Part shown: in pieces, positions 1-36,004 of the stretch
How positions within the stretch are numbered: the first letter of the stretch is position 1
Layout of the letters: each line of letters opens with the position of its first letter
From: Anaerolinea sp.
Lineage (GTDB): Bacteria; Chloroflexota; Anaerolineae; Anaerolineales; UBA4823
DNA: 43,606 nt
Direction: 5' to 3'
NCBI GenBank assembly: GCA_020722415.1
Contig: DYKV01000002.1
Span: forward strand, 15,718 to 59,323
Made by a program: the position numbers and the translations under genes
The notes under the pieces: generated by a model
What the model was told of the DNA's origin: nothing
What the model saw: only the letters and a program-made list of their open reading frames with translations
Databases searched by the model: none

Positions 1-115
1 TGAACTCTTGGCAAAAGGGGGTGGCAATTTACGTGTCACCCGCCAATATGCTGAACTCTTGGCAAAAGGGGGTGGCAATTTACGTGTCACCCGCCAATAT
101 GCTGAAGTCTTGGCA
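1..115 (+). repeat. 51-bp tandem repeat (2 exact copies plus a partial third), in frame, encoding ELLAKGGGNLRVTRQYA
   Basis: TGAACTCTTGGCAAAAGGGGGTGGCAATTTACGTGTCACCCGCCAATATGC at 1-51 and 52-102, then TGAAGTCTTGGCA. Confidence 0.95.
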
Positions 116-1432: not shown

Positions 1433-1434
1433 TT

Positions 1435-1818
1435 ATGTTTCGAATTGAAGCACCATACCCGGCTCCGTCTACAACGGCTATTTTACCCAGCCCACAGTGG
1501 GGTGACTCGCGTGAGCTTGTGTCTGCTATTAGCACAATGCACACGATGAATGGCACTCTATACACATATATCAAACGGAAGAAAGCCCGAAAGAAATTGG
1601 TATGGGATTTTGAGATTGCACGTAACAAAGCCTTGGAGCTTCGTGCGTTTTTCAATATTTATTATCGAACTAAAGTGCGTATTATTGACCATGACAATGT
1701 GACATGGATTGGTTACTTGATAAATAATCCTTTTGAGTTCACTGGTAAAGCCAGAGCACTTGGTTTTCCTGGTAATGAAACAATGAATGTGACAATTGAA
1801 TTTGAAGAGGCCGACTAA
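1435..1818 (+). CDS. Putative distal-tail (Dit-like) protein
   Basis: 127 aa ending in VTIEFEE, directly upstream of and overlapping a large hub-like gene, the usual Dit-Tal order. Confidence 0.5.
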   Translation: MFRIEAPYPAPSTTAILPSPQWGDSRELVSAISTMHTMNGTLYTYIKRKKARKKLVWDFEIARNKALELRAFFNIYYRTKVRIIDHDNVTWIGYLINNPFEFTGKARALGFPGNETMNVTIEFEEAD

Positions 1819-4760
1819 TGCGTACAATATCATCAGCCGCACAGGCACACATGCAGAAACAACATGGCTGTGAACCAATGTTTATTGTTGGTGTGCGGTG
1901 GTCTGCTGCCAGTCAAGAAATCTTGTATGCTGATCAAGAAGTGCCTGAAAGTGAAGGGTTACAAGTTCGTCCACAAGTTGTTGAGATTAGTGAATTTGAT
2001 GCTGCATTAAAGATTAGCGGATCAAGTGACTCTCAATCAATTAGCATTGTGCTGGATGATGTTGATGGGGCTTTGAAGTTAATTTTGGATACTGTAGATA
2101 TTCATAATGCGACATGTAATATCTATCAGCATTTCAAAGGGCTGTCACTAGCTCATAAGTTTCTTTTATTTCAAGGCAAGATTGTTACACCAGTGGAATG
2201 GGATGAAGGTGCTAGAACATTACGCTTTGATGTAATGACTCAATTAGATGAGATTGAAGTCGGTTTTTCAATGGAAGAAGGACACTTTCCGCATATACCA
2301 GAAGATGCATTAGGTAAAGTGTGGCCTCTTGTTTTTGGTTCAGTTTGTAATATGCAAGCAGTTCAGGTTCGTTCTCCTAGGCGTGGGACGCTATTACAAG
2401 GCGAGGGGATTGTTGATTTTACTTTACCGCACAGGATTTGTCAAGCACAATACATTCAGTGCCCTAGTGTGCCTGCTGGGGAAAAACAAACACTTACGCC
2501 TAATGGAAATGGTGGATATACTTTTGTAACCGCACAATCTTATGCACCTGATCGAACATGTGTTGAGAGTCGGTTTAATACTTTCTGTGAATTGACAGAC
2601 TTACTTGCACAGCAACAAGCATATGAGCATACATATCTTTTGGTTCGTGGTGGTGAGAATTTTCCACAAGGCGAAACTATTGTATTGAATGTAAATAATG
2701 CGAAATTTTGGGGTTATTTTACAAATGAAACATTTCATATTACAAGTCGTATGCATCCTGAATATGAAGAGATATGGCCTACAATAGTTGCTCATCCATG
2801 TAAAGCTATTGATGATTTTGCATATGGACCAGCACGATGGCATTATCATAGTGGATGGACTTTGAATAGTGCTGGTACAACGTGGTATGTTGATCCAGCT
2901 ACATTTCCATATGAAGATTGTAATGATGAGGGCCTAGTAAGTCAAACCAGTGATGGTGGTGCATCGGCATCACAAAAATATTTTGATGAGATGCCAACTT
3001 CCAGTTTCGTTTGGCTACCAGCAGGCACCGAAGTCTTTTTGGAAGATGAGGCTGAGATTCTGTATATTGTTAGCTTGATTCCAGGGACCGTGAATAATGT
3101 AGCAGCATACAAAACACAACCATCGGGACGCGCGTTATTGACTACGGTGCCTACTGATTACTATACTATTTATGAGACTGATTATGCTGGTTATCAAGTA
3201 GTTGAGATCGGTCTTAAGAAACCTTTGAGCCTGTATGATGCTAATTGGCACGATGATCTGTATGTGTCATTTACATCAGATGTTGGGCCTAATCCTGTGG
3301 ATATAATCATTTGGTTGCTGAATAAATATACTAATTTGTCATATGATACAACAACCTTTAATGCTGTTCGCACAAGCCTTACAAACTACCCAGCGAATTT
3401 TTGGGTGAAAGAACGGTTGAATGTTTGGCAGTTGATCCAGGATATTGCTTATCAAGCTCGTTGTGCTGTGTATGTGCGAGCAGATAAAGTGTATATTGTT
3501 TATTTGCCTTCTGAACCAACTTCTATTCGTACTTTAACTGAGAATGATATTATTGCAAAATCATTAAAAGTTGTGTTGACGCCTACTGAGGAAATTGCAA
3601 CAAAACATGTCATCACTTGGCAGGCAGGCGAAGCAGGTATTGAAGACACTGACCCCATTCAGCACAAGATTGTATTAAAGCATAACATTCAAAAGTATGG
3701 TATTCATTCAAAAGAAGTGACCTACTACACGCAAAATACATATGATACTATTTTAAAGTCGGCTACCTTTTGGATGATTCGAGACTCTAATGTTTGGAAA
3801 AAAGTAGAGTTTGAAACACCACTTTTACATCTTGATTTAGATTTATTCGACTGTGTAACAATTGATTTATCTGTATTTGGTGGCCCGATTAAGGGTATAA
3901 TTACCAATGCACAGTATCGAAGTAGCTCGAACACAATACACTTTGAATGTATGACTCCAATTAAATCAGGCGAAACAGCCGCGTATCCTTTCTTTTGGCC
4001 AGCGGCTGTTAATCCGCGATTGATGTTTCCATTGGAGACTGAGGAACAGTATTCAGGTGCAGGCTATGATTTTGAAGTGTCACCACCAGCTAACCATATC
4101 TTAGCAGGTGGTGATGTAACTGACATTGCTGATAGAATTGTGATTATGACCAGCGGTGATCCATTTCCATCTGATCTAGATGATACGTACCCTTCAATAT
4201 TGTGTCTTGATTCGAGTGCCCAGGAAATTAAAGAACCTGATCCTGTATTTGAAGCATTTAGGCGGGCAGCTAACAATAGTTATCAAGCTGCTGATGCTCT
4301 TACAAATTCAGGCGTAGGAAATGGTGGGACATCACAGAATAAAAAGAAACGGCGCACGGCGTGCGGTAGTCCAGTATATGGTGCTGGCTGTATCTATGAA
4401 GTAAACGTTATATATGTAACTCCTGATCTTGTAGCAAACCCCTGTCATTATATTGGTTGTCGTCATGGTACCGGGAACCCATGTACTGGTACAGTGGTTG
4501 GTATGTGTCATTCATTTAGAGCATTATTTGCTGCATCAATGTTTTATTACCAGAAACGAGCAGAAATTGATGCTTTGAAATCTGGCTGTGGTCATTATCA
4601 AACCGGAGTAACTGCTCCATACTCTCTTGGTTTTGCCCCTATATGGATTGTGGATGATCCAACTGATTCCCAAAGGTGCGAAAGTCTTCCAGATTTTCCG
4701 GGTGATCCCAATGCTCCGGGTGCAAATGAAGGTGAAACTTTTGAACCACATACTTTTTAA
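1818..4760 (+). CDS. Putative baseplate hub / tail tip protein
   Basis: 980 aa; N-terminal 'MRTISSAAQA' and 'SISIVLDDVDG', 'GKVWPLVFG', 'NPVDIIIWLL', 'LDLFDCVTID' patterns typical of phage hub/tail-tip proteins; Cys/Gly-rich C-terminal extension. Confidence 0.6.
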   Translation: MRTISSAAQAHMQKQHGCEPMFIVGVRWSAASQEILYADQEVPESEGLQVRPQVVEISEFDAALKISGSSDSQSISIVLDDVDGALKLILDTVDIHNATCNIYQHFKGLSLAHKFLLFQGKIVTPVEWDEGARTLRFDVMTQLDEIEVGFSMEEGHFPHIPEDALGKVWPLVFGSVCNMQAVQVRSPRRGTLLQGEGIVDFTLPHRICQAQYIQCPSVPAGEKQTLTPNGNGGYTFVTAQSYAPDRTCVESRFNTFCELTDLLAQQQAYEHTYLLVRGGENFPQGETIVLNVNNAKFWGYFTNETFHITSRMHPEYEEIWPTIVAHPCKAIDDFAYGPARWHYHSGWTLNSAGTTWYVDPATFPYEDCNDEGLVSQTSDGGASASQKYFDEMPTSSFVWLPAGTEVFLEDEAEILYIVSLIPGTVNNVAAYKTQPSGRALLTTVPTDYYTIYETDYAGYQVVEIGLKKPLSLYDANWHDDLYVSFTSDVGPNPVDIIIWLLNKYTNLSYDTTTFNAVRTSLTNYPANFWVKERLNVWQLIQDIAYQARCAVYVRADKVYIVYLPSEPTSIRTLTENDIIAKSLKVVLTPTEEIATKHVITWQAGEAGIEDTDPIQHKIVLKHNIQKYGIHSKEVTYYTQNTYDTILKSATFWMIRDSNVWKKVEFETPLLHLDLDLFDCVTIDLSVFGGPIKGIITNAQYRSSSNTIHFECMTPIKSGETAAYPFFWPAAVNPRLMFPLETEEQYSGAGYDFEVSPPANHILAGGDVTDIADRIVIMTSGDPFPSDLDDTYPSILCLDSSAQEIKEPDPVFEAFRRAANNSYQAADALTNSGVGNGGTSQNKKKRRTACGSPVYGAGCIYEVNVIYVTPDLVANPCHYIGCRHGTGNPCTGTVVGMCHSFRALFAASMFYYQKRAEIDALKSGCGHYQTGVTAPYSLGFAPIWIVDDPTDSQRCESLPDFPGDPNAPGANEGETFEPHTF

Positions 4761-5888: not shown

Positions 5889-6461
5889 ATGGTTGCTCGT
5901 ATGGATTTTTCTTGGCTCTCAGATATATTCAACGGGATACTTAAATTTATTCCGCGACCGGTTATTGTTCGAGCAACACATGGCGGTATTAAATGGGTAT
6001 TTGGAAAAAGAGTACGTGAATTAAAACCTGGATGGCATTTTGTATGGCCGTTAACAACTGACTGGGAAATCATTGTTACCGCACGCCAGACGAATAATCT
6101 TCCTAATCAAGCACTTGTGACAAGCGACAAGCATCAAGTTGTTGTTGGAGCCTTAATCGTATTCTCAGTGAAAGATATTATTCAGGCTATTGGCGAACGT
6201 AACTGGGACGTTGGAACAACTGTAAACGATATTGCACAGGCAGCAATCGTCAGCGTAGTGACAAAATGGCCATTAGATGATCTACTTATAAATTTGACCA
6301 GCAAGGTCGAAGAGGAATTAACTGAGGCATGTAGAAAGCAGCTTCGACAATTTGGTGTATCTGTACACCGATGCTGTTTTACTGACTTTGCTCCGTGTCG
6401 TATTTACAAACTAATGGGAGCGGAGAAGCCACCAGCTTTCAACAGTGCCGAGGGATACTAA
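5889..6461 (+). CDS. SPFH/Band 7 (stomatin/prohibitin-like) domain protein
   Basis: GIKWVFGK..LKPGWHFVWP, QTNNLPNQALVTSD, L..FGVSV....TD motifs. Confidence 0.85.
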   Translation: MVARMDFSWLSDIFNGILKFIPRPVIVRATHGGIKWVFGKRVRELKPGWHFVWPLTTDWEIIVTARQTNNLPNQALVTSDKHQVVVGALIVFSVKDIIQAIGERNWDVGTTVNDIAQAAIVSVVTKWPLDDLLINLTSKVEEELTEACRKQLRQFGVSVHRCCFTDFAPCRIYKLMGAEKPPAFNSAEGY

Positions 6462-7139: not shown

Positions 7140-7622
7140 TTAACCTTTGCGCTTTTGCTTCTTTGCCTTTTTTGTTTTTGGTGCTAGTTTATATGCTAAT
7201 CCTTCACTAGGATTTGTTGGGTCAACACAAAGTGGGTTATCACTAATTTCCAGTGGGTTCCACGGAAGGTCATTCAATTCTGGAGGTAGCAATCCTTCCT
7301 CGATTCTTATACGAGTTTCAATAAGTCCAAGAAAATTCCAGCAAGCCATTGCATCGTGTGGCTCATCACGGTCGCCCCTCAAATACTTCATAGCGTGCCG
7401 CAGCCCACTATCAAGATAACGGCTGAGAGGAATCCCTTTTTCCCAATTTCTGGCAGCATATTTCTTTGCACCGCTTTCATATACTTTTGCGACTTCAAAT
7501 AAGGCTCGCACGGGTAGCAAATCCATTCGACCCTTTCCCTCTTGTAAGTCTCTTTGAGCTCCAGTTCCAAATTTAGAACGCTGTCCTGAATCTTTGAAGC
7601 TCCAACTTGGTTTCTTAGGCAT
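7140..7622 (-). CDS. dATP/dGTP diphosphohydrolase-like protein (DUF5664 family)
   Basis: FGTGAQRD..GKGRMDLLP, GAKKYAARNWEKGIP, DSGLRH, DEPH...CWN; start at ATG 7622 with GGAG 9 nt upstream. Confidence 0.85.
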   Translation of the reverse strand: MPKKPSWSFKDSGQRSKFGTGAQRDLQEGKGRMDLLPVRALFEVAKVYESGAKKYAARNWEKGIPLSRYLDSGLRHAMKYLRGDRDEPHDAMACWNFLGLIETRIRIEEGLLPPELNDLPWNPLEISDNPLCVDPTNPSEGLAYKLAPKTKKAKKQKRKG

Positions 7623-7641
7623 TTGTTGTAACTCCACGATG

Positions 7642-7842
7642 CTAATACAAGGAATTAAGGTCGCCATTGTCCTCTTCAAATTCTTCAATCGACAAGATTA
7701 CAATATAGTCGCCTCCATGCTGTTTCGCAAAGTTTTTATTATTTAATGGTAGCGGACCATTCATTCGTAACTCACATACTAGGTAAGCGTGATCAGGATA
7801 CTTGTCTGATTTCTTGAATACTTGTACAATATAATCATTCAT
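7642..7842 (-). CDS. Hypothetical protein
   Basis: 66 aa; start overlaps the primase stop (ATGA) and fills the gap in the minus-strand operon. Confidence 0.55.
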   Translation of the reverse strand: MNDYIVQVFKKSDKYPDHAYLVCELRMNGPLPLNNKNFAKQHGGDYIVILSIEEFEEDNGDLNSLY

Positions 7843-10695: not shown

Positions 10696-10974
10696 ATGCA
10701 TATGATACCAAGGCTGCTTCCAGATGGAGTACTGGTTTACCCTAAAAAGGGTACACCACCACCGGTCCCCGAGGGTTATCGCCGGAAGTCTGATAACTTG
10801 ACAAGCCCAGATGCTTGGATTATGCTTCCATTGTGGCGAGATTGCCCATTTCGAATTTGTGAAACAAGCAGGCGAGAGGATTGCCGCTGTATCACCTATG
10901 TTTATTTTTGTGGCCATCCTCATTATAATCGTCCTCGATTAACCATTTCCATGTGCAAATCTTGTACCCTATGA
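10696..10974 (+). CDS. Small Cys-rich protein, paralogous to the middle domain of 5157..5879
   Basis: YPKKGTPPPVPEGY..W....W..CPFR...C...CKSC; stop overlaps the ParB start. Confidence 0.65.
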   Translation: MHMIPRLLPDGVLVYPKKGTPPPVPEGYRRKSDNLTSPDAWIMLPLWRDCPFRICETSRREDCRCITYVYFCGHPHYNRPRLTISMCKSCTL

Positions 10975-11942
10975 CACACCAGCGCTCATATAAACTTATA
11001 CCGATTCAGTTAATCAATTTTCCGCCTGCGCTGCTTCGATTGATTAACCGGCGTACATTAGAATACATAGAGTTACGAGATTCCATAAAATCGGTCGGAT
11101 TGTTAAATTCGATATGTGTTCGCCCAATATCAAACCAATATCGAAGTAACTATTATGATATAATTGATGGTGTGCATAGGTACGTAATTTGCAAGGATTT
11201 AGGTTGGACAGAGATGCCGTGTATTGTGCTTGAAGGTGTTACAAATGAGGAATTACCGTGGCTTCAAATGCAAGCAAATGCTCATAGACGAACGACTTCT
11301 CCCGCTGAGTATGCGGCACTAATTCGCAAGCTACTTATAGAAAAACCTGATATGAGCATTGATGAATTGTGTGCCCGGTTGAATAAAAAACCCACCTGGG
11401 TTAAGCAAGTTCTATCTTTGTTGCAATTATGCGATGAAGCAAAGAAAGCTGTTGCATTAGAGCAACTTCCCCTATTATCGGCTTATGCATTAGCGAAGTT
11501 ACCTAAGAAAATACAAGAATGCTTGTTGCCTTGGGCTTTAGTAATGGCATCCTCTAAGTTTGTAGAGGTATGTGGTAGCATTATTCGTGGGTATCGTGAG
11601 GCAAAATCTCGTGCGAATTTAGAGGCTTTTCTCACAGAATCATTCGACACTCCAAAGTTCCTGCGATCTTTCAAGCAGATTTGCTTGGAGCATTCAGTTG
11701 GTACAGTAGGGGCGGTATTGATTCAGCAGTATGCTTTGGAACGTCCAATTGATGCATGGCGAATGGCTTTGGCATGGGTTTTGCATATTGATCCAATATC
11801 TACTAAGATATTTAAGACTAAACTTGAACGGAAGCAGCGGGCCTTGAATGAATTAGCAATGACTAAGAAGATGGATAAAAAACGTGAAATTCAAGCTATG
11901 AAAATGAAAATTGAAGGGGATTCGCGAGAAATTTTAACTTGA
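10971..11942 (+). CDS. ParB/Spo0J-like protein (ParB N-terminal domain + HTH)
   Basis: ELRDSIKSVGLLNSICVRP, YDIIDGVHRY, MQANAHR, HTH SIDELCARLNKKPTWVKQVL. Confidence 0.85.
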   Translation: MTHQRSYKLIPIQLINFPPALLRLINRRTLEYIELRDSIKSVGLLNSICVRPISNQYRSNYYDIIDGVHRYVICKDLGWTEMPCIVLEGVTNEELPWLQMQANAHRRTTSPAEYAALIRKLLIEKPDMSIDELCARLNKKPTWVKQVLSLLQLCDEAKKAVALEQLPLLSAYALAKLPKKIQECLLPWALVMASSKFVEVCGSIIRGYREAKSRANLEAFLTESFDTPKFLRSFKQICLEHSVGTVGAVLIQQYALERPIDAWRMALAWVLHIDPISTKIFKTKLERKQRALNELAMTKKMDKKREIQAMKMKIEGDSREILT

Positions 11943-13729: not shown

Positions 13730-14244
13730 CTCCGAGTGCTGCTATCATTACTGCGCCGCATCTAAATCAAAACATATTTCTGCCAGTTTGCCAGAATATG
13801 TTAGGATATTCTCCTGCGCGGGCCGCAGATGCCGCCAATTTGACCGGGGTACCGCATTTAATGTCTATTTTGGCAGCATTCAAGAATAAGAATACTCCTG
13901 CTACAATAAAAGCGGCACGCGATATTTATGATTTAATTCATTTCAATTGCTTAATTGCTGCCGATGATTATGATATGATTTCTATATTGGAAGTTTTATC
14001 CGGTATGCCATTTGTAGCAACTGAAACATTAGTGCGTGGTGTTCAAGCGGTTGTTGTTGGTGGGACCTTGCATGAATGGCGTGATGCTATTTATCGAGGA
14101 TGCCGTTTGGATCAAACAACACAAGTGCGTGCATGTTTTGATAAGTTATATTTACAATTTGTGCAACTCGGTTTGACGGATATTTTTGGTCGAACCAAGC
14201 ATCAGGCAGCCGATCAAACTTTTTATTTGGAGGAAAACCGATAA
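13726..14244 (+). CDS. Degenerate ThyX-like protein
   Basis: VVVGGTLHEWR...QVRACF resembles the ThyX C-terminus, but no RHR/SxRY catalytic motifs. Confidence 0.4.
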   Translation: MTPSAAIITAPHLNQNIFLPVCQNMLGYSPARAADAANLTGVPHLMSILAAFKNKNTPATIKAARDIYDLIHFNCLIAADDYDMISILEVLSGMPFVATETLVRGVQAVVVGGTLHEWRDAIYRGCRLDQTTQVRACFDKLYLQFVQLGLTDIFGRTKHQAADQTFYLEENR

Positions 14245-14257
14245 CAGGATTTAATTC

Positions 14258-16201
14258 ATGGCAATTCCGCTAAATACACCTTTTGACATTAAGCTGGTAA
14301 CTGAAACAAAATCTGGTGGGCGAATTAAAGTCCCTTCTCGACTTTGTGTTACTAATACCCGTATCGAGTTCTTGAAATCACCCTTTGCATTGAAGGATGA
14401 AATTAAAGTGATGCGTGGTGCCAAGTGGCACGGTTTCGATGATCCGCCTAAGAAAATCTGGTCGGTAGATAATTGCTTTCGTAACTGGTTTCAGTTGCGT
14501 TATCTAATGGGTGAGAATCCTTATGAATGGTTTGATCGACCATTGCAACATTTTACTTATGACCGTCCACTTATGTCCCATCAGCGTGATCTGTCGGATG
14601 CTGGTTTAACTTACCATTATCAGATTTGGGCAGCTCAACCAGGGGTTGGAAAGAGTCTTTCAGCTATTGAAGTGATGGAGCACTCTGGTAAACGTAAGTG
14701 GTGGTGGATTGGCCCCAAATCTGGCTTGTATGCAGTGGAGCGCGAATTCAAGAAATGGGAAATTAGTCCAGAGCTATATATTGAGATAATGACCTACGAG
14801 GGTCTAGTTAAACGTATGTCTAATTGGAAGTCTGGTGATAAGGCACCAATGGGTGTTGTTTTGGATGAATCTAGTCGATTGAAAACTGCTAATGCTCAAA
14901 GAACACAAGCAGCACAGGCATTGGCTGATGGCATCCGTAATGATTGGGGGATGGAAGGCTATGTTATTCTAATGTCAGGCACGCCATCACCTAAGTCACC
15001 GGTTGACTGGTGGTCACAAGCAGAAATAGCATGGCCGGGCTTTCTTCGTGAAGGGTCTGTTGACGCTTTTAAGTTTAGGCTTGGTATTCATCGTAAAGAA
15101 GAAGGCACTCTTGGCAATGCGTTTTTCCAGTTAGTTAGCTGGCGTGATGATGAGCGCAAGTGTGAGGTTTGCGGAGAATATGAGAATGAAGGCAAACATA
15201 AGCATCTCCCCGGCGTCTTGGATGATCCAGACCTCCATGATTTTAAGCCATGCAAGAATGAAGTTGCGCTTCTGTATGAGCGCCTGAAGGGTCTTGTGGT
15301 CGTTAAGCACAAGAAAGATTGCTTAGATTTGCCGGATAAGCGGTATCGTGTAATTAAATGTCAGCCTTCGCCTGCAACCTTGCGTGTGGCATCAACATTA
15401 CTGAAGACAGCGCCTAATACAATCACTGGTTTGACGTGGCTGCGTGAATTGAGCGATGGCTTTCAATACAGGGACAAGGTTGTCGGCAAAGAAACCTGTC
15501 CAGTATGTAATGGAAAATGTACGTGCAAGTATTGGGTTGACCCTAATGATCAAGAGCGAGCGTTCACAATGGTTGATATGCTCGACTCTGAGTATGTTGC
15601 AACCTTGAAGCAGATGGACCTGACTTGTGCTACTTGTAATGGTACTGGTGAAGTTAACAAGTATGAGCGGATTGTTAAGGAAGTTCCTTGCCCGAAGGAC
15701 GAAGCTCTGTTGGATTTGCTTGATGAAAATGAAGAGTGTGGGCGAATGGTGGTGTTCACAGGCTTCACGGGCTCAGTTGATCGTGTGACTCGAATTTGTT
15801 TGAAGCATAAATGGGATGTTGTGCGTGTTGACGGTCGTGGCTGGTTAGTTTATCGGTGTGATGGGCAGCCGACAAACGAAAAGCCATTGGACTATTGGGC
15901 TGATTTTAACAATCCGCGAGTATGTTTTGTAGCGCACCCAAAATCAGGCGGTATGTCACTGACATTGACGGAAGCCAGAACGGCGGTCTTTTTCTCAAAT
16001 GATTTTACACCTGAATCCAGGTCACAGGCTGAAGATCGTATTCATCGTCTTGGCACGGATATGAATAAAGGTGCAACCATTGTTGATTTGATCCATTTAC
16101 CTACTGATGACCATGTCCTTAGCGTCTTGCGGGATAATCGTCGCTTAGAGCTAATGACGCTTGGAGATTTTGAAAATGATTATGTTGGGGTGCCAGAATG
16201 A
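14258..16201 (+). CDS. SNF2-family helicase with Zn-finger insertions
   Basis: QPGVGKS, VLDESSRLK, MSGTP, SGGMSLTLT, QAEDRIHRLG; CPVCNG and CATCNGTG inserts. Confidence 0.9.
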   Translation: MAIPLNTPFDIKLVTETKSGGRIKVPSRLCVTNTRIEFLKSPFALKDEIKVMRGAKWHGFDDPPKKIWSVDNCFRNWFQLRYLMGENPYEWFDRPLQHFTYDRPLMSHQRDLSDAGLTYHYQIWAAQPGVGKSLSAIEVMEHSGKRKWWWIGPKSGLYAVEREFKKWEISPELYIEIMTYEGLVKRMSNWKSGDKAPMGVVLDESSRLKTANAQRTQAAQALADGIRNDWGMEGYVILMSGTPSPKSPVDWWSQAEIAWPGFLREGSVDAFKFRLGIHRKEEGTLGNAFFQLVSWRDDERKCEVCGEYENEGKHKHLPGVLDDPDLHDFKPCKNEVALLYERLKGLVVVKHKKDCLDLPDKRYRVIKCQPSPATLRVASTLLKTAPNTITGLTWLRELSDGFQYRDKVVGKETCPVCNGKCTCKYWVDPNDQERAFTMVDMLDSEYVATLKQMDLTCATCNGTGEVNKYERIVKEVPCPKDEALLDLLDENEECGRMVVFTGFTGSVDRVTRICLKHKWDVVRVDGRGWLVYRCDGQPTNEKPLDYWADFNNPRVCFVAHPKSGGMSLTLTEARTAVFFSNDFTPESRSQAEDRIHRLGTDMNKGATIVDLIHLPTDDHVLSVLRDNRRLELMTLGDFENDYVGVPE

Positions 16202-17370
16202 CACGGTGTATTGTCTGTGGTCATAAACATTTTTATCCTGTGTTTAATCCTGGTCCACAACCACTTGCTGCATTGAATCTACCTAATACTCAGGAAGAGG
16301 CAAAAGATGCTTTGCGTTTTCCGATGAAGTTCGTTGCATGTGCGTTCTGTGGGCATGTGTTTAATACAGATTTTGATTACACGATTGTTCCGTATGGTAA
16401 GGATTCTAACCGCATGTACAATAGTGGATGCGTGTGGTGCAACCACTTGCAATATGTTATTGATAAGTTGCTAAAATACCGTAGTCGATGGGAGTCTGGT
16501 ATCGCAATTGACATTGGGTGTGGTGATGGTCAATTCTTTAGTCGCTTGAAAAGCCAGATGCCACAAGCAACATATATCGGTTATGAACCCGGAGTCGAAG
16601 CGGAACGGATTCGGGATTTTACTGTAATAAGGGATTATTTTATTCCTGAGCGTGATCTGAAGCGTTTTCGACCATCGTTGTTAGTATGCCGGCATGTTTT
16701 GGAACATTTAGAGCAACCACGAGACTTTGTAGCAGAAATTGCTTATTGGTCCAGCATGTATGATCTGAAACCTCTGGTATTATTTGAAGTGCCCTGTATT
16801 GATAAAGCAATGCGGCTCGGTCGCATGTCTGATTTTTTATACGAACATGTTTCAAACTTTACGGCTCGTAGTTTTGGTTATCTGTTCGAGACGGCTGGTT
16901 TCACTTCGCTTGATACTGAAGTGTGTTATGACGACGAAGTGTTGGTAGGCTTGTTTGAATGTAATACAGTGCAACTCAATGTAATTCGGGATATAGCCAA
17001 ATTATTTCGGCAACAAGCCAAAAACTCTTTGAAGATGGTAAGCCAGCAGCTAGCTTGTATGCCAGCACCAATTTATTTTTGGGGTGGCACCGGCAAGTCC
17101 GCCGCATTTTTGAATACCTTTGGTGTGGATTCAGATCGTTTTCCGTATGTTGTTGATTCGGACCCAAGTAAGGTTGGTCGTTTTGTTCCTGGAACTAGTC
17201 AAAAGATCAGGTCGGTTGATTGGTTATTGGAACATGAGCCGGGTATAATTGTAATCACAACCCCTTGGCGAGCACGTGATATTTTCAAAGAAATACAACA
17301 ACGTGGTGTCCGATACAAGCAAGTAGTTGTTTTGTGGAAAGGCATGTTGCAACAATATGACAATGTTTAA
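16198..17370 (+). CDS. NDP-sugar C-methyltransferase-like class I SAM-dependent methyltransferase
   Basis: N-terminal Zn site CIVCG...CAFCGHV, DIGCGDG, CRHVLEHL, FEVP, YEHVSNFT, C-terminal WGGTGKS...VVDSDPSKVGRFVPGT. Confidence 0.85.
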   Translation: MTRCIVCGHKHFYPVFNPGPQPLAALNLPNTQEEAKDALRFPMKFVACAFCGHVFNTDFDYTIVPYGKDSNRMYNSGCVWCNHLQYVIDKLLKYRSRWESGIAIDIGCGDGQFFSRLKSQMPQATYIGYEPGVEAERIRDFTVIRDYFIPERDLKRFRPSLLVCRHVLEHLEQPRDFVAEIAYWSSMYDLKPLVLFEVPCIDKAMRLGRMSDFLYEHVSNFTARSFGYLFETAGFTSLDTEVCYDDEVLVGLFECNTVQLNVIRDIAKLFRQQAKNSLKMVSQQLACMPAPIYFWGGTGKSAAFLNTFGVDSDRFPYVVDSDPSKVGRFVPGTSQKIRSVDWLLEHEPGIIVITTPWRARDIFKEIQQRGVRYKQVVVLWKGMLQQYDNV

Positions 17371-19117
17371 TTTTGATCCAAAGGTAGCTTTGCAGCATTA
17401 CATGCAGAAACGATTTGACAAAGTAAGTCAAATGTTTATCGATGTGTTTTTGCATTTTGACAAGGTGTGGTATGGTGGGTTTAGTCGCAGTGATTTGTTG
17501 AAGCTAGAAGAATTTGTTGCTACATTTCTATATATCTGGACGCGGCCTGATTTTAAGCTACCTTCACAATATAATACTGTGTTCTCGAATATCGGGCATC
17601 TTATTGCCAATGTTGTTGCCATGTCAAGTTATGGCTCAACTGACGGTGCATTAGGTCATATTTTGGCCCAAGATCATAATTATTATCGGATGCTACCACT
17701 GTTAACGGTTTACAATACAATCCAAATCTCAGCGGAACAAATTGTTAATGTTGACCCTATACATGGCACTTTGTGGTGGCTTGCCTATCAGACGGCTTCA
17801 CCGGGGTCATTGACACAAGAGGTCCATGACAGGATGGTACGCCAGTATTTTGATATACCAAAAGACCTTAAGCTCCGCGATTGTCGTGTAGCTCCCTTAT
17901 ATTTTCAGGTGTCTTATTTTGCACCTGAGCGGGCTCGTGCTGTTAAGACAGTGTTAAATGATCAGATTGCCTCTCAGATTAAAGTGTCTGTTTGCAATAA
18001 ACCCAACGTGAAGAGTATTGCAATTGTGTCTGGTCGCTGGCAGCCAACAACAGCGGTTTACAAGAGCATGGCTCCGCAGGTTCATGCCTTGGCGTCTAAG
18101 TATGATTTAACTCTTGTTCAATTTGGCGAGAATGAATCATTAGTTGATAGGTCGCACTTCAAGTCAGTTGTTCAAGTGAAAATGTTTAAAGATTTTACAG
18201 GGTGCGATATTTCTGCTATCAAAAATAATGATTTTCAGCTTGCATTTTTCCCTGATGTTGGAATGAATTTTGAGTCAACTTGGTTGTCAAATTTGCGGAT
18301 TGCCCCTATCATGGTAACCGGCTATGGACACCCTGTTAGCACTTTTAGCCGACAGATGGATTATTTCATTGGCGGGCAGGAAGTTGAGAGAGCCGATTTG
18401 GCATCGGAAAATTATGATGAACGTTTGGTGTTGATCCCTGGTTTAGGTTGCTATCCTATTGACCCAAAGTATACACGAAAGGGGCGAGTCGATTCCAAAG
18501 AGATTTGGGTAAATTGTTGTTGGACAACACATAAGATTAACTACCCAATGCTCTGTGTATTGCGTACAATTCAACAACTAGCACCTCGCCCAGTGAAATT
18601 TCATTTCTACCCGTCTTGGACACTTGGAAAATACAACAATCTTATTTACTTTGTCAAAACACTCAATCAATTCTTTGGGTATGGCAACTGGCGATATGAC
18701 ACCAACCTTAAGTATCATGATTACCTGGCGTCAATGGAACAAGCAGCGTTTACCATTGACTCCTATCCATTTGGAGGTTATAATACAATCATTGATTCAT
18801 TGTTTGTGGGCTGTCCGGTTGTGGCTATTGAAGGCACACAATTTGCAAATCGTGCATCTTCGGCGTTATTGCGACGTGTTGGGCTAGATGATCTGATTGT
18901 ATCTAATCTAGAAGAATGTGCAGCAAAAGCCTTGGAATTGGCATCAAATCCTGATTACTTGGAGTCAGCACGGAGTAAACTTGCTGATGTTGATAATTTG
19001 CAACAATTGTTGCTTCATGCCGAGGAACCAGGATATTTTGTGAAAGCTATTGATTATTTGATTGCTAATCATGAGCAATTGCAAGCTAGCCCTAAAACCT
19101 GCTTGACTATTGGGTAA
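17357..19117 (+). CDS. HMW1C-like / GT41 protein glycosyltransferase
   Basis: FFPDVGM...LSNLRIAPIMVTGYGHPVST...DYF, WTTHKIN, DSYPFGGYNTIIDSL..GCPVV..G....R; all-helical N-terminal domain without TPR array. Confidence 0.8.
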   Translation: MTMFNFDPKVALQHYMQKRFDKVSQMFIDVFLHFDKVWYGGFSRSDLLKLEEFVATFLYIWTRPDFKLPSQYNTVFSNIGHLIANVVAMSSYGSTDGALGHILAQDHNYYRMLPLLTVYNTIQISAEQIVNVDPIHGTLWWLAYQTASPGSLTQEVHDRMVRQYFDIPKDLKLRDCRVAPLYFQVSYFAPERARAVKTVLNDQIASQIKVSVCNKPNVKSIAIVSGRWQPTTAVYKSMAPQVHALASKYDLTLVQFGENESLVDRSHFKSVVQVKMFKDFTGCDISAIKNNDFQLAFFPDVGMNFESTWLSNLRIAPIMVTGYGHPVSTFSRQMDYFIGGQEVERADLASENYDERLVLIPGLGCYPIDPKYTRKGRVDSKEIWVNCCWTTHKINYPMLCVLRTIQQLAPRPVKFHFYPSWTLGKYNNLIYFVKTLNQFFGYGNWRYDTNLKYHDYLASMEQAAFTIDSYPFGGYNTIIDSLFVGCPVVAIEGTQFANRASSALLRRVGLDDLIVSNLEECAAKALELASNPDYLESARSKLADVDNLQQLLLHAEEPGYFVKAIDYLIANHEQLQASPKTCLTIG

Positions 19118-19130
19118 ATTGTGCTAAAAT
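19103..19130 (+). promoter_or_regulatory. Sigma70-type promoter upstream of RNA ligase
   Basis: TTGACT-16 nt-TAAAAT with extended -10 TG. Confidence 0.55.
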
Positions 19131-19156
19131 TAAGTAGGCTTCTTTATGAGGGCAAT

Positions 19157-20212
19157 ATGAGCACATTGAAAATTGAAACAGTAATGATTGAGTCAGTTGA
19201 TCCGCATCCCAATGCAGACAGGCTTGACGTTATAACTATTGGTGGTTACAAGATTTGCGACAGAAAAGGCAAGTACGCGGCTGGTGATATTGTGGCTTAT
19301 TTTCCACCAGACATTTTAATTCCATCTGATATTGCCACCCAGTTGGGGGTTGCTCAGTACCTCAAAGCAGCTATTTACCCTGGTGAATCCAAGAAATCAA
19401 ATTGCCGTGTTGGTGCTATTCGTTTGCGTGGTGTTCCGTCGTTTGGTTTCATTTTGAAAGTAAATGAGCCTGTTGGTAAAGACTTAACAGAACGATTTCA
19501 TGGCGCAAAGTTTGAACCGCCTGAGCCAATGGGGAATATTACTGGTCTGCGTGCTAAGGATGATATTCGGTTCCATACTTATACAAACATTGAGAATTGG
19601 CGTAAGTATAAAAACGCCATGCCGAATGGTCTACCAGTACGCATCACTGAAAAGATTCATGGCACTAATTCGCGCGTCGGATTGATTGCTGGTGAATATA
19701 TGTGTGGTTCACACAAGACGGCATTGAAACCAGAAGATAATACTGGTCGCCCGTCTATGTATTGGATGCCTCTTACTTCTGATATGAAATCAATGCTTTC
19801 ATGTATCAGTGAGGGACGATATAATGTCATTGTCTTTGGGGAAATTTTTGGCTCGAAGATTCAATTTATGGACTATGGTATCACAGGTTGTGGTGGATAC
19901 CGTGTATTTGATATTTCGGTGGGTGGAGAATATCTGCCGTGGGAGCAGGTAGTATATTATTGTAATCGTTTTTGTATTCCGCTTGTACCTTTGGTATATA
20001 AGGGGGCTTATTCACCTGATATCGTCGAACAGCTTGTCGATGGTCCAACTATGGTTGCTCCACTCGATCAGATTCGTTGCGACTTCAAGGGGCGCGAAGG
20101 TGTAGTCATAACACCTTTGAAAGAAACTTATTCACTAGAATTAAATGGACGACTCATTCTAAAAGCTGTCAGTGTTGATTATTTGGCATCACGGCGGAGT
20201 GATAGTCATTAA
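19157..20212 (+). CDS. RNA ligase, DRB0094/Rnl5 family, with N-terminal OB (tRNA-binding-like) domain
   Basis: HPNADRLD, RLRGVPSFG, motif I TEKIHGTN, FGEIFG, VFDI, REGVVI, LKAVSVDYL. Confidence 0.9.
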   Translation: MSTLKIETVMIESVDPHPNADRLDVITIGGYKICDRKGKYAAGDIVAYFPPDILIPSDIATQLGVAQYLKAAIYPGESKKSNCRVGAIRLRGVPSFGFILKVNEPVGKDLTERFHGAKFEPPEPMGNITGLRAKDDIRFHTYTNIENWRKYKNAMPNGLPVRITEKIHGTNSRVGLIAGEYMCGSHKTALKPEDNTGRPSMYWMPLTSDMKSMLSCISEGRYNVIVFGEIFGSKIQFMDYGITGCGGYRVFDISVGGEYLPWEQVVYYCNRFCIPLVPLVYKGAYSPDIVEQLVDGPTMVAPLDQIRCDFKGREGVVITPLKETYSLELNGRLILKAVSVDYLASRRSDSH

Positions 20213-20253
20213 AAAATATTCTTCATGCAACTATATACAGAGGTTTAGAAACG

Positions 20254-21546
20254 GTGAAACTGACCACAGAAAATGTCCGATGTATCAAGAAATTATTAAA
20301 TAAGGGACTTTCGCAGCCAAAGATTGCTAAGCGTTTTGGTGTGAGCCGATCATTGATTTCGGATATTGCGACTGGGCGCGCGTGGACAAAAGTCTCAGGC
20401 AAGCGATCAATTAAGCGCCCTGGTGGGCAGCCAAAGGCAATGGATTATGATCCAACTGATGAGCGTATTTTGACTCTTGAAGCAGAAATTGCTATGCTGC
20501 AAGATGAACGTGCAGCAATGAAGCGGCAGCTTAAAGCCATGACAAAAACACATGGCTTATTTAGGGCAATGGTTGATGAAATGGAAGCGATTGTGACACC
20601 AATGAAGGCGTTACCCAGGGTGATTCCTGTTGAGCCTGTAAAAAATGCCAAGTGTATTGAAGAACATTTGGTAATGCATCTGAGTGATGGACATCATGAT
20701 CAAATTGTTCACCCCTCCGAGTGTGGTGGGCTTGAGTGCCATAATTTCTTGATTAGTATGCGACGGGCCGAACAGTATGTTGACACTGTCTTGAAATGGA
20801 CACAACAGACTCTTGCACCGCAATTCAAGTTTCCTGAGTTGACAGTACTTGCATATGGTGACCATACAAGTGGCGAAATTCACGGGCATACTGAACGGTC
20901 ATATTTTAGGAATCAGTTTAAGAATTGTTTTGCAATCGGTCAGCTCCATGCTTTGATGTATCGTGATTTAGCTCCGTACTTTGAAACTGTGAATATTGTA
21001 TATGTTCCAGGTAATCATGGACGGCGCAGCATCAAGAAAAATTATTATGGTGCTCATGATAACTGGGACTATTTGATTGCTGAAACGGCCCGGCTTCATT
21101 GTCGAGATATAAAAAATATCAATTTCGTGATTCCAGATTCATTCTCCATTAACTTAGACATTAATGGTGTTGGATTCTGCATCTTTCATGGTGACGATAT
21201 TCGCTCAAATATGGGTATTCCGTTCTATGGTCTTGAGCGACGTCAACGTCGAATCATGGCATTGAATCAGGCATTTGGTACACATATCCGGTACTATTGC
21301 TGTGGGCACTTTCATCGACCTAGTTCATTAACTGATCTTGATGGCGAGATTATTGTCAATGGTACTTGGGTCGCTACGGATGCGTTTGCATATAATGCGT
21401 TTGGTGGTTACACTGTACCTTCTCAATTATTACATGGTGTGAATCCTAAGTATGGTATCACTTGGAGGCTTCCAGTGAATCTGCGAACCGATGATGAGGC
21501 TCGTGGTCCTCAACGTTACAAAATTGATATTAGGAACGACAAATGA
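20254..21546 (+). CDS. HTH-coiled coil-calcineurin-like metallophosphoesterase
   Basis: N-terminal HTH (SQPKIAKRFGVSRSLIS), coiled coil, SDGHH, GD..SG.IH, PGNHGR, FHGD, GHFH. Confidence 0.8.
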   Translation: MKLTTENVRCIKKLLNKGLSQPKIAKRFGVSRSLISDIATGRAWTKVSGKRSIKRPGGQPKAMDYDPTDERILTLEAEIAMLQDERAAMKRQLKAMTKTHGLFRAMVDEMEAIVTPMKALPRVIPVEPVKNAKCIEEHLVMHLSDGHHDQIVHPSECGGLECHNFLISMRRAEQYVDTVLKWTQQTLAPQFKFPELTVLAYGDHTSGEIHGHTERSYFRNQFKNCFAIGQLHALMYRDLAPYFETVNIVYVPGNHGRRSIKKNYYGAHDNWDYLIAETARLHCRDIKNINFVIPDSFSINLDINGVGFCIFHGDDIRSNMGIPFYGLERRQRRIMALNQAFGTHIRYYCCGHFHRPSSLTDLDGEIIVNGTWVATDAFAYNAFGGYTVPSQLLHGVNPKYGITWRLPVNLRTDDEARGPQRYKIDIRNDK

Positions 21547-23074: not shown

Positions 23075-23947
23075 ATGGTACCGAAGATCACTGATTTTTT
23101 GCTATCACGTGCTGAACAGGTTGCTGAAGACGCAGTGAAAATGCAACTCGATGTTAAGGTTTATCAGGAAATCCGAGCACATCTTCCACGTTTATTTCCG
23201 GCTCCTGATAAAATCATTCTGTGGCCAACAGACGCCTGCGAGGTGCTGTTTGTTTACATGATTAAACCCAAAGAGCAAGCTGAAGCCTTACGAATGGCAA
23301 TTAGTTTAGCGTTTGCAATTAGCAAGGATGGTTGGTATGGTGAATTACAAAAGGAAGACAATACATTTTCTGTCTTTAGTGCCTGCACGATTAATAATCA
23401 CTGTGTATTAATAAAGTTGATCGGGGCAAATTTTGAGGATTATGAATTCAATGTGGAGCAAGATACAGGCACGCGACTTATTGGTCCTGTGCAATGTTCT
23501 AAGTTTGTACCATTCGATATTATCCGGCCTGATGCTTCGGACGATATTCTTATTGAGCATAGTAAGAAAGTTGATTTGACAGCATATTACGCTAAGTATA
23601 AGGCGAAGATTCTTAGTCTTGTTGGTCATAGAATACCGGCTCAGACGCCAGTTCCTGATGATGTTGTTGTAGGAATTGGTACGACGTTTGATTTGGACTT
23701 AGTGTATAATGAGGATAAGAATGGAAGCCTTCGAAAAAGGCTTGATAAGCATCTCGGCTGTCAGGATGGTTGGACATTGCTTGTGCATAAAGCAACTTTT
23801 ACCCAGACTTTGTATAAGATTATTGATGTGGCGTGTGACTCTTGGACTATTAAAGTGCGGGTATCAATTTTGAAGCCGTATCTTGAGGTTGAAAATTTAT
23901 CACTCACCAGTGACAAGCAAGATTATTTATTGTATCAATATAAATGA
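23075..23947 (+). CDS. Hypothetical protein with an internal domain duplication
   Basis: PAPDKIIL..EVLFVY..LR..KDGW versus PVPDDVVV..DLDLVY..LR..QDGW. Confidence 0.65.
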   Translation: MVPKITDFLLSRAEQVAEDAVKMQLDVKVYQEIRAHLPRLFPAPDKIILWPTDACEVLFVYMIKPKEQAEALRMAISLAFAISKDGWYGELQKEDNTFSVFSACTINNHCVLIKLIGANFEDYEFNVEQDTGTRLIGPVQCSKFVPFDIIRPDASDDILIEHSKKVDLTAYYAKYKAKILSLVGHRIPAQTPVPDDVVVGIGTTFDLDLVYNEDKNGSLRKRLDKHLGCQDGWTLLVHKATFTQTLYKIIDVACDSWTIKVRVSILKPYLEVENLSLTSDKQDYLLYQYK

Positions 23948-24720
23948 TCATGACGCAACAAACATTTGACCATATAAAATTTGATCCTAATGTGCCTGTA
24001 GAAAAAATCTACGCAGACCCAGCGTTTAATTGCCGTGGACTATTGGATGCTACGCGATTGATGGAATTGGCTGACAGTATTTCTCTACATGGGTTACAGT
24101 TGCCAATTATGATTCAGCCGTTGGACTTACCTGATCCATTTAAATATCGCATCATCTCTGGGCATCGTCGCTTTTCTGCTTGTACAAAGTTTTTGCATTG
24201 GGTAACAATACCGGCATTGATCAACTTACAACCAATGTCAGACAATGATGCAAAATTTCTCAATCTTGTTGAGAATATCAACCGGCAAGATTTAACGCAG
24301 CTTGAGGCTGCTTATATACTTCAGAATTTTATACAATCAGGTTACTCGGTTCATGAATTGGCAAGCAAAATCAATAAGTCTGTTGGATGGATACAATCAC
24401 AGCTTTCCATTTTATCCTTGTCTCCTGTTATTCAGACTACAGTTATTAAAAAGAGACTTTCAGTAGATGACATTGACTATTTAGCTTCATTGCCAGAATC
24501 TAGTCAGGAACAAGGCTTACAATTTTTGCTTTCGCGCAAACGCAAATATCAGAAAAAGTCAAAAAAGTTACAACAGCGCCCTAAGCTCGCTGATTTACGA
24601 CATATGATGCACTTCTTAATGGATTGTAATTGTGATATTGCTGCCAGGACACTTGCATGGGCACTAGGACTAGTCCCTACAGATGTGTTCAAAAACGAGG
24701 CACGTGCTGCAACCAAATAA
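23944..24720 (+). CDS. Second ParB/Spo0J-like protein
   Basis: FNCR, ELADSISLHGLQLPI, YRIISGHRRF, NLVENINRQDL, HTH SVHELASKINKSVGWI. Confidence 0.9.
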   Translation: MIMTQQTFDHIKFDPNVPVEKIYADPAFNCRGLLDATRLMELADSISLHGLQLPIMIQPLDLPDPFKYRIISGHRRFSACTKFLHWVTIPALINLQPMSDNDAKFLNLVENINRQDLTQLEAAYILQNFIQSGYSVHELASKINKSVGWIQSQLSILSLSPVIQTTVIKKRLSVDDIDYLASLPESSQEQGLQFLLSRKRKYQKKSKKLQQRPKLADLRHMMHFLMDCNCDIAARTLAWALGLVPTDVFKNEARAATK

Positions 24721-31534: not shown

Positions 31535-31783
31535 ATGCTTTCTGACACAGTATTAAAACGTTTGCTTGGAGCAGATTTGACAGGCGACAAACTGACGGGA
31601 TTGTTTACTGACATGGCTAATATGATGATTTTATCCGATGCAGCGCAAGCCTCGCTGGTTTTAGGCTATGTCGATGATCTTCGTGAATTACAACCTGGAG
31701 ACTTCATTCCTACAATCACAATGTCCCTTACACGTTATACCGAGGTCAAGGATATTGCGACAAATGCTTCAGACCATCATTGA
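31535..31783 (+). CDS. Hypothetical protein
   Basis: AGGTG RBS; 82 aa. Confidence 0.55.
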   Translation: MLSDTVLKRLLGADLTGDKLTGLFTDMANMMILSDAAQASLVLGYVDDLRELQPGDFIPTITMSLTRYTEVKDIATNASDHH

Positions 31784-33595: not shown

Positions 33596-34022
33596 AGAAT
33601 ACTTTAAGTTTCGGCGTACAACCTGCTTCAATAAAGAGAAGCAGCCTGCAAAGGAACGTAAAGACTGGTTGTCGCATGATAAACGTTATCGCATTACATG
33701 GCGTCGTGTTGTTTTGGGCGTTCATGTTCCAGCACGATACTATGCACTAAAAAAGCTATGGGTCAGTCACCCGGACGGCGGGTGGCCTATATGGGATTTT
33801 GTAAAAGATCGACGCCCTTACAGGACACTGTATGCGGCAGTTAAAGCCTGTATGCAATCTGAAAAGATAGAGATTGAAGCGCAGCTTGCGCCAAAACGCA
33901 GACAGCGTAAAAAAACTGAGTCTACTAAAACACGTACCCCCTTGCCTGTCGAGCAGCCAAAGAAACGTGGGCGTCCCAAGGGGTCAAAGAATAAAAAACC
34001 TCGTGTGGACAAGGGACGATGA
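33573..34022 (+). CDS. Basic protein with C-terminal AT-hook-like motif
   Basis: KKRGRPKGSKNKKPR. Confidence 0.6.
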   Translation: MHPKQAFEEYFKFRRTTCFNKEKQPAKERKDWLSHDKRYRITWRRVVLGVHVPARYYALKKLWVSHPDGGWPIWDFVKDRRPYRTLYAAVKACMQSEKIEIEAQLAPKRRQRKKTESTKTRTPLPVEQPKKRGRPKGSKNKKPRVDKGR

Positions 34023-34576: not shown

Positions 34577-34992
34577 TGAAAATAACCTATGCACAAATTA
34601 CTTCAATGATTTGTGAACTTGCCACAAAAGTTCGACCATTTATGAATGGTTATACGAACATTGTTGGCATTGCAAATGGTGGTTTGCATGTCAGTCGGCC
34701 ATTAGCCGCTATGCTAGGGTGCTCGCATAGCAGCGTGCGAATTAGCCACTATGATGGTTCAGTAAGACGCGCGATTCCTATTGTTGAAGGACATTTGCCA
34801 CAATCAACAGGCAACTTGATTGTGGATGATCTGATTGATAATGGATGGACAATGCAAACTTTTGCCGATCATTTTGGTCTTGAAGGCAACATGACGGCTG
34901 TATTATTTTGGAAGCCAGGTAGTTTTAAGCCAGATTTTTATGTTGCCGAGAAGCCAGAAGGATGGGTTCACTTTTTGTGGGAGGTTGAATGA
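34576..34992 (+). CDS. Purine phosphoribosyltransferase (type I PRTase)
   Basis: IVGIANGGL, PRPP loop LIVDDLIDNGWT, PDFY...WVHFLWE as in xanthine-guanine PRTases. Confidence 0.85.
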   Translation: MKITYAQITSMICELATKVRPFMNGYTNIVGIANGGLHVSRPLAAMLGCSHSSVRISHYDGSVRRAIPIVEGHLPQSTGNLIVDDLIDNGWTMQTFADHFGLEGNMTAVLFWKPGSFKPDFYVAEKPEGWVHFLWEVE

Positions 34993-35993: not shown

Positions 35994-36004
35994 AACATTG
36001 TAAC

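Follow-up and report, generated by a model that had tools for sequence, protein, structure and literature searches.

We found two overlapping genes, coding for a methyltransferase and a glycosyltransferase of family GT41, in a 43,606-nucleotide stretch of an Anaerolinea sp. assembly (GCA_020722415.1, contig DYKV01000002.1, positions 15,718 to 59,323 of the forward strand; hereafter the window). The first gene (MT) resembles S-adenosylmethionine (SAM)-dependent sugar C-methyltransferases, and the second resembles the cytoplasmic enzymes of the HMW1C type. The surveys described below support MT and GT41 as a real, conserved functional unit in phages. We think it somewhat probable that they make up a two-gene cytoplasmic protein-glycosylation cassette, which would use a methyl-modified nucleoside diphosphate (NDP)-sugar and is carried by one clade of uncultivated siphovirus-like phages. 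A first-pass annotation of this DNA had proposed a phage protein-glycosylation module with a sugar C-methyltransferase. It was right in outline, while the N-x-S/T chemistry that it assumed and the link that it drew to an FkbM methyltransferase were wrong or unproven.

Distribution of the gene pair among viruses

A scan of IMG/VR for the GT41 family found 39 loci, near-duplicates included (e.g., L029/L039, L026/L027, L033/L034, and L013/L021). In 37 of them, MT immediately precedes GT41 on the same strand; the two loci without it are 24-25% matches. A second GT41 paralogue is present in eight. The pairing of the two genes is far beyond chance. Because a sample anchored on GT41 is biased by its query, we ran a second survey, anchored this time on the neighbouring exonuclease; 128 relatives were found and 80 kept, and the 70 loci with at least 6 kb of upstream sequence were counted over ±7 kb. 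Both genes were present in 32 of these loci, one alone in none and neither in 38, absence within this interval not being equal to absence from the genome. Co-occurrence in viral genomes, proposed as a check by the first-pass annotation, is therefore borne out.

In the non-carriers that we examined (L236, L238, and L249), the SNF2 helicase gene abuts the exonuclease gene, which makes the place of the cassette a variable slot. All 33 carriers fall, together with one non-carrier, into a 34-row set of the exonuclease tree that has 100* support, and two changes suffice for the cassette pattern. The cassette is thus accessory in the wider lineage and stably inherited in one clade. This is not the picture of a sporadic host-derived insert absent from relatives, which the first-pass annotation had named as its own possible undoing: the pair is neither sporadic nor core. 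Within the carrier clade, the cassette proteins go down to about 30% identity to those of the window and the exonuclease is 56-81% identical, and the MT and GT41 trees hold the same viral clades.

Nothing close was found among described phages. A blastn search of window positions 14000-20500 against GenBank phages gave no match, MT had only five weak matches (20-24% identity) in the 50,697 GenBank phage records, and PADLOC reported nothing for either gene. In relatives, a 535-aa protein is encoded upstream of MT, for which an ESM Atlas search returned no usable match.

The methyltransferase and the glycosyltransferase

Both open reading frames (ORFs) are present as first described, and the pair lies in overlapping order behind the SNF2 helicase gene. 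Their features are as follows, the glycosyltransferase lacking tetratricopeptide repeats (TPRs).

16198..16201, plus strand: ATGA overlap between the stop of the SNF2 helicase gene and the start of MT (sequence reading)
16198..17370, plus strand: SAM-dependent sugar C-methyltransferase-like gene (MT), 390 aa (ORF; Pfam; PDB profile matches)
16207..16371, plus strand: N-terminal Zn-ribbon of MT, CxxC...CxxC (C4, C7, C48, C51; PF08421 aa 4-58, below cut-off)
16450..16905, plus strand: Rossmann SAM-binding domain of MT with DIGCGDG, followed by E216-H217 (PF13489 aa 85-236)
17020..17295, plus strand: C-methyltransferase C-terminal domain of MT (PF08484 aa 275-366)
17357..17370, plus strand: 14-nt overlap between the MT 3' end (stop 17368-17370) and the GT41 start (sequence reading)
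17357..19117, plus strand: HMW1C-like TPR-less GT41 gene, 586 aa from ATG, in an ORF opening at TTG 17327 (ORF; PDB)
17357..17896, plus strand: N-terminal region of GT41 that appears to correspond to the HMW1C all-alpha (AAD) acceptor-binding domain (profile alignment)
17897..19006, plus strand: GT-B catalytic region of GT41 with GHP, WTTHK, and PFGGYNTIID motifs (phmmer against AaNGT)

MT matches PF13489 at 52.2 bits (cut-off 27) and PF08484 at 45.6 bits (cut-off 23.5), whereas the Zn-binding family PF08421 reaches 23.9 bits, under its cut-off of 31.3. Against the PDB, the single sequence found MtmC (4rv9) at 7.1e-9, and a family profile built from 31 members found MtmC at 2.9e-30 and TcaB9 at 2.6e-23 over positions 2-354 of 395, that is, over all three domains. 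All solved relatives at E<1e-20 are NDP-sugar 3-C-methyltransferases, enzymes in which the C-terminal domain holds the nucleotide. The four Zn cysteines, G107, G109, E216, and H217 do not vary in any of the 46 homologues, and the E216-H217 pair, which we take to be catalytic, is aligned with the EH of MtmC and TcaB9. Judged from these alignments, MT is a sugar C-methyltransferase of the MtmC/TcaB9 fold and a full-length relative of the NDP-sugar 3-C-methyltransferases. It has in common with MtmC, TcaB9, and the 5t64 enzyme (TylC3 family) the three-domain build, the Zn cysteines, the SAM motif, and the EH pair, although identity is only about 20-25% by eye and the PF08421 score falls short. Those enzymes belong to antibiotic biosynthesis, whereas the context of MT is a phage and protein glycosylation, and, unlike them, MT has no deoxysugar pathway genes among its neighbours.

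The second gene encodes 596 aa if read from TTG 17327 or 586 aa from ATG 17357, the latter being the form in the protein database. The motifs PDVGM, NLRIAPI..GHPVST, and PFGGYNTIID, which had led to its assignment, are all in the translation, and no TPR family was found by Pfam at E<=0.01, in agreement with the first description. The match to PF13844 (36.9 bits, cut-off 25) is restricted to aa 482-554; the same family is precomputed for most GT41 homologues. In the PDB, the single sequence matched AaNGT at 1e-20, ApNGT at 6.4e-20, and human OGT at about 1e-8, and phmmer aligned aa 191-560 of the 596-aa form with AaNGT 216-595. A family profile extended the matches to near full length (AaNGT 5e-56, ApNGT 5.1e-54). 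Its positions 61-557 aligned to AaNGT chain residues 70-598, and the match therefore takes in the all-alpha domain that HMW1C enzymes have in place of TPRs, whereas SPINDLY (3.7e-17) and OGT (7e-16) were matched in the C-terminal part only. In this comparison, also suggested by the first-pass annotation, GT41 is by sequence much closer to the HMW1C-type N-glycosyltransferases (NGTs) than to OGT or SPINDLY. E-values to its homologues go down to 0. Longer forms are limited to three proteins of 1237-1736 aa, listed with the GT41 family alone and without an MT domain; from their lengths, we read them as probable tandem GT41 copies.

We mapped the AaNGT residues described in PMC10507012 on a HMMER alignment and on a 128-sequence alignment, that is, on sequence alignments only, using the numbering of the 586-aa form. 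The pyrophosphate and ribose contacts of AaNGT (T437, K440, N520, and D524) and its G369-H370 are retained in GT41 as T390, K393 (128/128 homologues), N476 (120/128), D480, and G324-H325 (128/128 and 126/128). On these residues, GT41 looks catalytically competent. Among the uracil contacts H494, S495, and Y500 only the tyrosine is kept, the corresponding residues being N450, L451, and Y456 (the last in 125/128 homologues), and the sugar/peptide contacts H276 and S277 are replaced by T and A. The expectation that the UDP-binding residues would be present thus held for the pyrophosphate and ribose contacts and failed for two of the uracil contacts. With H276, S277, H494, and S495 replaced, the nucleotide of the GT41 donor may be other than UDP.

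The acceptor site departs further from the NGTs. In PMC10507012, R177, H214, and D215 of AaNGT are described as reading the sequon, R177 and D215 as critical and conserved among NGTs, and the R177A and D215A variants as inactive. In GT41, H214-D215 correspond to A179-P180, immediately before a conserved LYFQ block, and R177 to A147 or S148, in a column less certain than that of H214-D215. The NCBIfam NGT equivalog NF049992 scores 89.7 bits against a cut-off of 1000. With the sequon readers and two uracil contacts replaced and the equivalog score so low, GT41 is, as far as these alignments tell, HMW1C-like in build and not a canonical N-glycosyltransferase, as it fails the acceptor features that define NGTs. 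The proposal of Asn glycosylation at N-x-S/T accordingly finds no backing here.

Set beside HMW1C, ApNGT, and AaNGT (PDB 3q3e, 8p0o, and 8j30), GT41 is like these enzymes of about 590-620 aa in lacking TPRs, in its all-alpha and GT-B homology, and in having the GHP motif, the catalytic lysine, and the pyrophosphate/ribose-site residues Asn and Asp. It differs in the residues replacing R177, H214, and D215 (A/S, A, and P), H276 and S277 (T and A), and H494 and S495 (N and L). Its partner gene is a C-methyltransferase instead of an adhesin or a second glucosyltransferase, and its carrier is a phage.

Flagellar relatives, mechanism and rival explanations

Searching 185,579 species genomes with GT41 gave 178 cellular relatives, of which 80 were kept. 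The ten closest are all Planctomycetota (Pirellulales, Thermoguttaceae, and Planctomycetaceae; 37-42% identity). MT is also present in eight of the 80 bacterial loci (37-53% identity), seven of them among these ten. Flagellin, FliD, or FliS is encoded within 8 kb in nine of the ten, and Pfam identified flagellins of 931-1065 aa, FliD, and FliS in the four Planctomycetota loci that were annotated. The closest cellular homologues of both genes thus stand side by side in Planctomycetota flagellar loci, a kinship that was unexpected. The acceptor-site columns point the same way: the window GT41 reads A-S-R-A-P ... T-A-K, like the A-R/Q-R-A-P ... S-A-R/K of the Pirellulales flagellar loci, whereas the other bacterial clade has an NGT-like Y-R...H-H...S-R. 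That clade (69 rows) comprises cyanobacteria, other Planctomycetota, Verrucomicrobiota, and others. Its six annotated loci show no conserved neighbourhood, an FkbM methyltransferase following GT41 in one of them.

The Planctomycetota pairs nest among viral clades in both the MT and the GT41 tree, so that these pairs may have passed between the bacteria and such phages or may even have come from the phages; both trees are quick searches rooted at the midpoint and give no direction of transfer. The Planctomycetota islands have the same two families side by side, their pairs being 38-42% (GT41) and 37-53% (MT) identical to the window proteins, and the same acceptor-site signature as the phage cassette, from which they differ in that flagellin, FliD, and FliS were matched in none of the 39 viral loci. 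The neighbouring Planctomycetota flagellins show no excess of N-x-S/T (z from -1.6 to 0). According to PMC4875605, GT41 enzymes often occur in the flagellin glycosylation islands of enterobacteria, most of them as fusions with AdoMet methyltransferase domains, and FkbM methyltransferases are common there too. The fused domains as described there are of a generic AdoMet type, unlike the separate MT of the phage. Our literature searches found no biochemical characterisation of bacterial flagellin-island GT41 enzymes.

Some cellular GT41 genes are very similar (end branches of 0.01-0.06) on short contigs from metagenome-assembled genomes (MAGs) labelled as different phyla, Planctomycetota and Actinomycetota (L069, L075, L079, L084, L087, L092-L097, L102, L104, L107, L109, and others). 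Errors in binning could account for this, as could a source that is mobile or very abundant.

For the phage cassette, family membership suggests a route in two steps. In the first, MT would C-methylate an NDP-4-keto-deoxysugar supplied by the host, with SAM as methyl donor, and a methyl-branched sugar nucleotide would result. In the second, GT41, with its HMW1C-like all-alpha and GT-B parts, would move the methyl-branched sugar within the infected cell to a protein, either folded or nascent. Short-chain dehydrogenase/reductase (SDR) genes of the dehydratase/epimerase kind in two of the five relatives rated complete (L209:6382-8653 in G003 and L210:7261-8217 in G001) count in favour of this route as genes of sugar-nucleotide metabolism. 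Their best NCBIfam match is dTDP-glucose 4,6-dehydratase, below the cut-off, and the SDR gene of G003 adjoins one for UDP-glucose 6-dehydrogenase. As a separate observation, NADAR, Nudix, and RlaP-like genes lie near these SDR genes.

Several findings weigh against such a cassette. No NTP_transferase (nucleotidyltransferase) gene is present in any of the five complete relatives and no dedicated 4-ketoreductase was seen in the window or in the annotated loci of relatives, so that the donor pathway would depend on the host. The SDR genes occur in only those two relatives, far from the MT-GT41 pair. The cassette sits among replication genes and not among structural genes, and none of the 39 viral loci has a flagellin-like gene. 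PHROGs has no family for MT or GT41, and GT41 has no match among the 50,697 deposited phage records. To these we add the replaced uracil and sugar/peptide contacts of GT41.

Cytoplasmic protein glycosylation by GT41 enzymes and protein glycosylation by phage-encoded enzymes are both known kinds of system, and the cassette would be a variation on both. The statement of the first-pass annotation that no phage system of this kind had been characterised needs qualifying, since virion glycosylation in mycobacteriophages has been published. According to PMC12582341 and PMC12894461, both citing Freeman 2023, phage enzymes are reportedly responsible for it; the glycosyltransferases are reported to decorate the structural proteins of the phage itself, and a methyltransferase is mentioned alongside (PMC12894461). 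A point of difference is that the mycobacteriophage hosts are actinobacteria. The mycobacteriophage enzymes are not known to belong to family GT41. Among titles and abstract starts, we found no functional study of a phage with HMW1C or GT41.

By analogy with the mycobacteriophages, it is plausible that virion proteins are the acceptor, although we rate surface proteins of the phage virion as less likely than not. The flagellar kinship of the cassette makes a host filament plausible too, and we rate flagellin or another host protein lower still, leaving the rest of the odds to other acceptors. In its most specific form, the proposal is that a clade of environmental phages vertically keeps a minimal machine that both makes a C-methyl-branched deoxysugar and places it onto proteins, its HMW1C-like GT41 enzymes forming a new acceptor-specificity class. 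We regard this as rather doubtful; its target would be the tail or capsid surface of the phage or the host flagellar filament. A 242-aa tail-tube-like protein encoded at C307:8001-8729, with seven N-x-S/T sequons against 2.4 expected (z 3.4) was considered and set aside as noise-level. Two of its sites are kept in seven of eight orthologues, yet in blocks that are conserved anyway, and they were not counted as evidence.

The same glycan could also arise with the roles divided differently. GT41 would transfer an ordinary host hexose or N-acetylhexosamine (HexNAc), and MT would methylate the protein-bound sugar or another substrate, so that a C-methyl-branched sugar nucleotide would play no part. 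The strict co-occurrence of the two genes fits this order of events equally well, and neither a 4,6-dehydratase nor a nucleotidyltransferase or ketoreductase adjoins the pair; the absence of NTP_transferase from the five complete relatives points the same way. Modification on site would also fit the fused AdoMet methyltransferase domains described for enterobacterial island GT41 in PMC4875605. Post-transfer methylation nonetheless seems to us unlikely, as the solved MT relatives at E<1e-20 all act on NDP-sugars and match over three domains, the EH pair and Zn site of MT are invariant, and the uracil contacts of GT41 are replaced, as expected for a donor other than a plain UDP-hexose. The neighbours of the pair (dCMP deaminase, SNF2 helicase, RNA ligase, Mre11-like exonuclease, DNA polymerase A, ThyX, and ribonucleotide reductase [RNR]) might instead suggest modification of nucleic acid, with a glycosylated base in phage DNA as an anti-restriction measure or in RNA. 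Known phage DNA glucosyltransferases are likewise GT-B enzymes, and those of the T-even phages are encoded among DNA-metabolism genes. However, the T-even enzymes need hydroxymethylcytosine, whereas a ThyA-type hydroxymethylase (PF00303) is missing from all five complete relatives and the window shows only ThyX, and they have no sequence similarity to GT41, which had no match in the phage records. TET/JBP (PF12851) was also absent from the five relatives, a weak point because the control genomes were silent too. Since SNF2 and the exonuclease abut in relatives without the pair, the site is a variable slot and not a functional operon with replication. The closest cellular pairs lie in flagellar and not in DNA-modification loci, and the homology of GT41 to protein glycosyltransferases is full-length, acceptor domain included. 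We therefore disfavour DNA glycosylation and consider nucleic acid an improbable acceptor.

The best-known C-methyl sugars come from pathways for natural products and O-antigens, and in one bacterial locus (L074) the pair stands with sulfotransferases and a radical-SAM enzyme. Both facts would suit a cassette that remodels the cell surface, its acceptor being a small molecule, a lipid, or a host-envelope polysaccharide. The characterised GT41 members that we matched are, however, all protein-acting by their molecule names, and the annotated phage loci show no membrane or export genes beside the pair, which leaves such an acceptor very improbable. Lastly, the pair might be a passenger from a bacterial flagellar locus, with no role in the life cycle of the phage. 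It is absent from 38 of the 70 related loci and sits in a variable slot, as a passenger might; yet 33 of the 34 members of a well-supported clade have kept it, and it persists down to about 30% GT41 identity, with intact ORFs, invariant catalytic residues, and the overlapping-gene architecture preserved (alignment gaps of -37 to 350 nt). We give this explanation hardly any credence.

The protein-glycosylation cassette matters for several reasons. Cytoplasmic HMW1C-type enzymes are prized tools for glycoprotein production in bacteria, yet their use is restricted to N-x-S/T and glucose. The phage-borne enzymes form a large and diverse sister family that would widen the toolbox: their acceptor pocket is different, their nucleotide-sugar probably is too, and a sugar methyltransferase is dedicated to them. 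It would also extend phage-encoded protein glycosylation past the mycobacteriophages, and it points to uncharacterised enzymes of flagellin glycosylation in Planctomycetota and to gene flow between these bacteria and phages. Both genes are small and their products soluble-looking, which makes them easy objects to test in E. coli.

The L074 locus of an uncultured bacterium (L074:2661-12328) holds MT, the radical-SAM enzyme, two tandem GT41 genes, and three sulfotransferases, and may be a more elaborate glycan-modification cluster.

The phage contig and its other genes

The window is part of a 63.5-kb contig (G000:C307). A search of sequencing runs turned up one DNA run that contains the sequence, probably its source, and no RNA run was listed. 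Upstream on this contig are genes for terminase, portal, scaffold, major capsid, and tape-measure proteins. The window itself holds a block of replication and nucleotide-metabolism genes: primase, two ParB-like genes, dCMP deaminase, SNF2 helicase, RNA ligase, Mre11-like exonuclease, PhoH, DNA polymerase A, ThyX, and class II RNR. These genes mark the carrier as a siphovirus-like phage or a phage-like element, placed in the bin of a MAG whose rpoB is about 83% identical to Anaerolineales genomes. The link from phage to host through this bin is weak. The GC content of the contig is 42.8% against 45.3 ± 2.1% for the bin, and its tetranucleotide correlation with the remaining bin is 0.82 (median 0.966). 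Three flagellin matches were found in the bin, which has no GT41 of the cassette's family of its own. The bin contigs C469, C290, C289, and C294 are also of atypical tetranucleotide make-up (correlation 0.61-0.82), and C469 (49 kb) may be another mobile element.

By sequence comparison, no cultured phage is close. The nearest capsids are those of Streptomyces phages, at no more than 37% identity over about 60% of the length of the capsid protein. For the 484-aa major capsid protein at L006:5196-6650 (C307:5196-6650), the Streptomyces phage alignment is in two pieces over about 60% of the length, suggesting an inserted domain.

Two neighbours of the cassette look interrupted in relatives. The SNF2 match is in two pieces 0.5-1 kb apart in L002, L014, L023, L031, L032, L035, and L037. 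In L002 (3818-6634) it is a single ORF of 938 aa, compared with 647 aa in the window, a difference that points to an insertion in frame, for instance of an intein or homing element. The RNA ligase ORF at L003:11317-13428 has 703 aa against 363 aa in the window and is matched in two pieces about 1 kb apart, probably another in-frame insertion, and in L005 the RNA ligase is split over two ORFs.

The FkbM methyltransferase that the first-pass annotation had associated with the cassette is a real gene at 36073-36726 (PF05050, 52.7 bits). It was considered as a third member of the cassette and rejected, being present in just one of the five complete relatives. It belongs to a purine-related cluster at 34019-36726 that also contains a nucleoside 2-deoxyribosyltransferase-like gene (weak match), a xanthine/hypoxanthine phosphoribosyltransferase-like gene, and a GMP reductase gene (NF003470 at 454.9 bits, cut-off 397). 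The ORFs that were scanned include no PurZ-like gene. A protein with a dATP/dGTP diphosphohydrolase N-terminal domain is encoded on the minus strand at 7140-7688.

The two ParB-like genes (ParB_N and HTH_ParB) lie at 10953-11942 and 23944-24720, and both are kept in many relatives. Tail proteins are encoded at window positions 2-4760, and a protein with an SPFH/Band 7 domain is encoded at 5889-6461, immediately after the tail genes. At 31668-33050, the phage encodes a BCS1-like AAA ATPase (BCS1_N 122.5 bits, AAA, and BCS1 lid), which matches phrog_7485, a family of unknown function. At the right end of the contig (L007:1411-4238; C307:60610-63437), a glutamine amidotransferase-like gene is followed by two genes of the amidoligase family.

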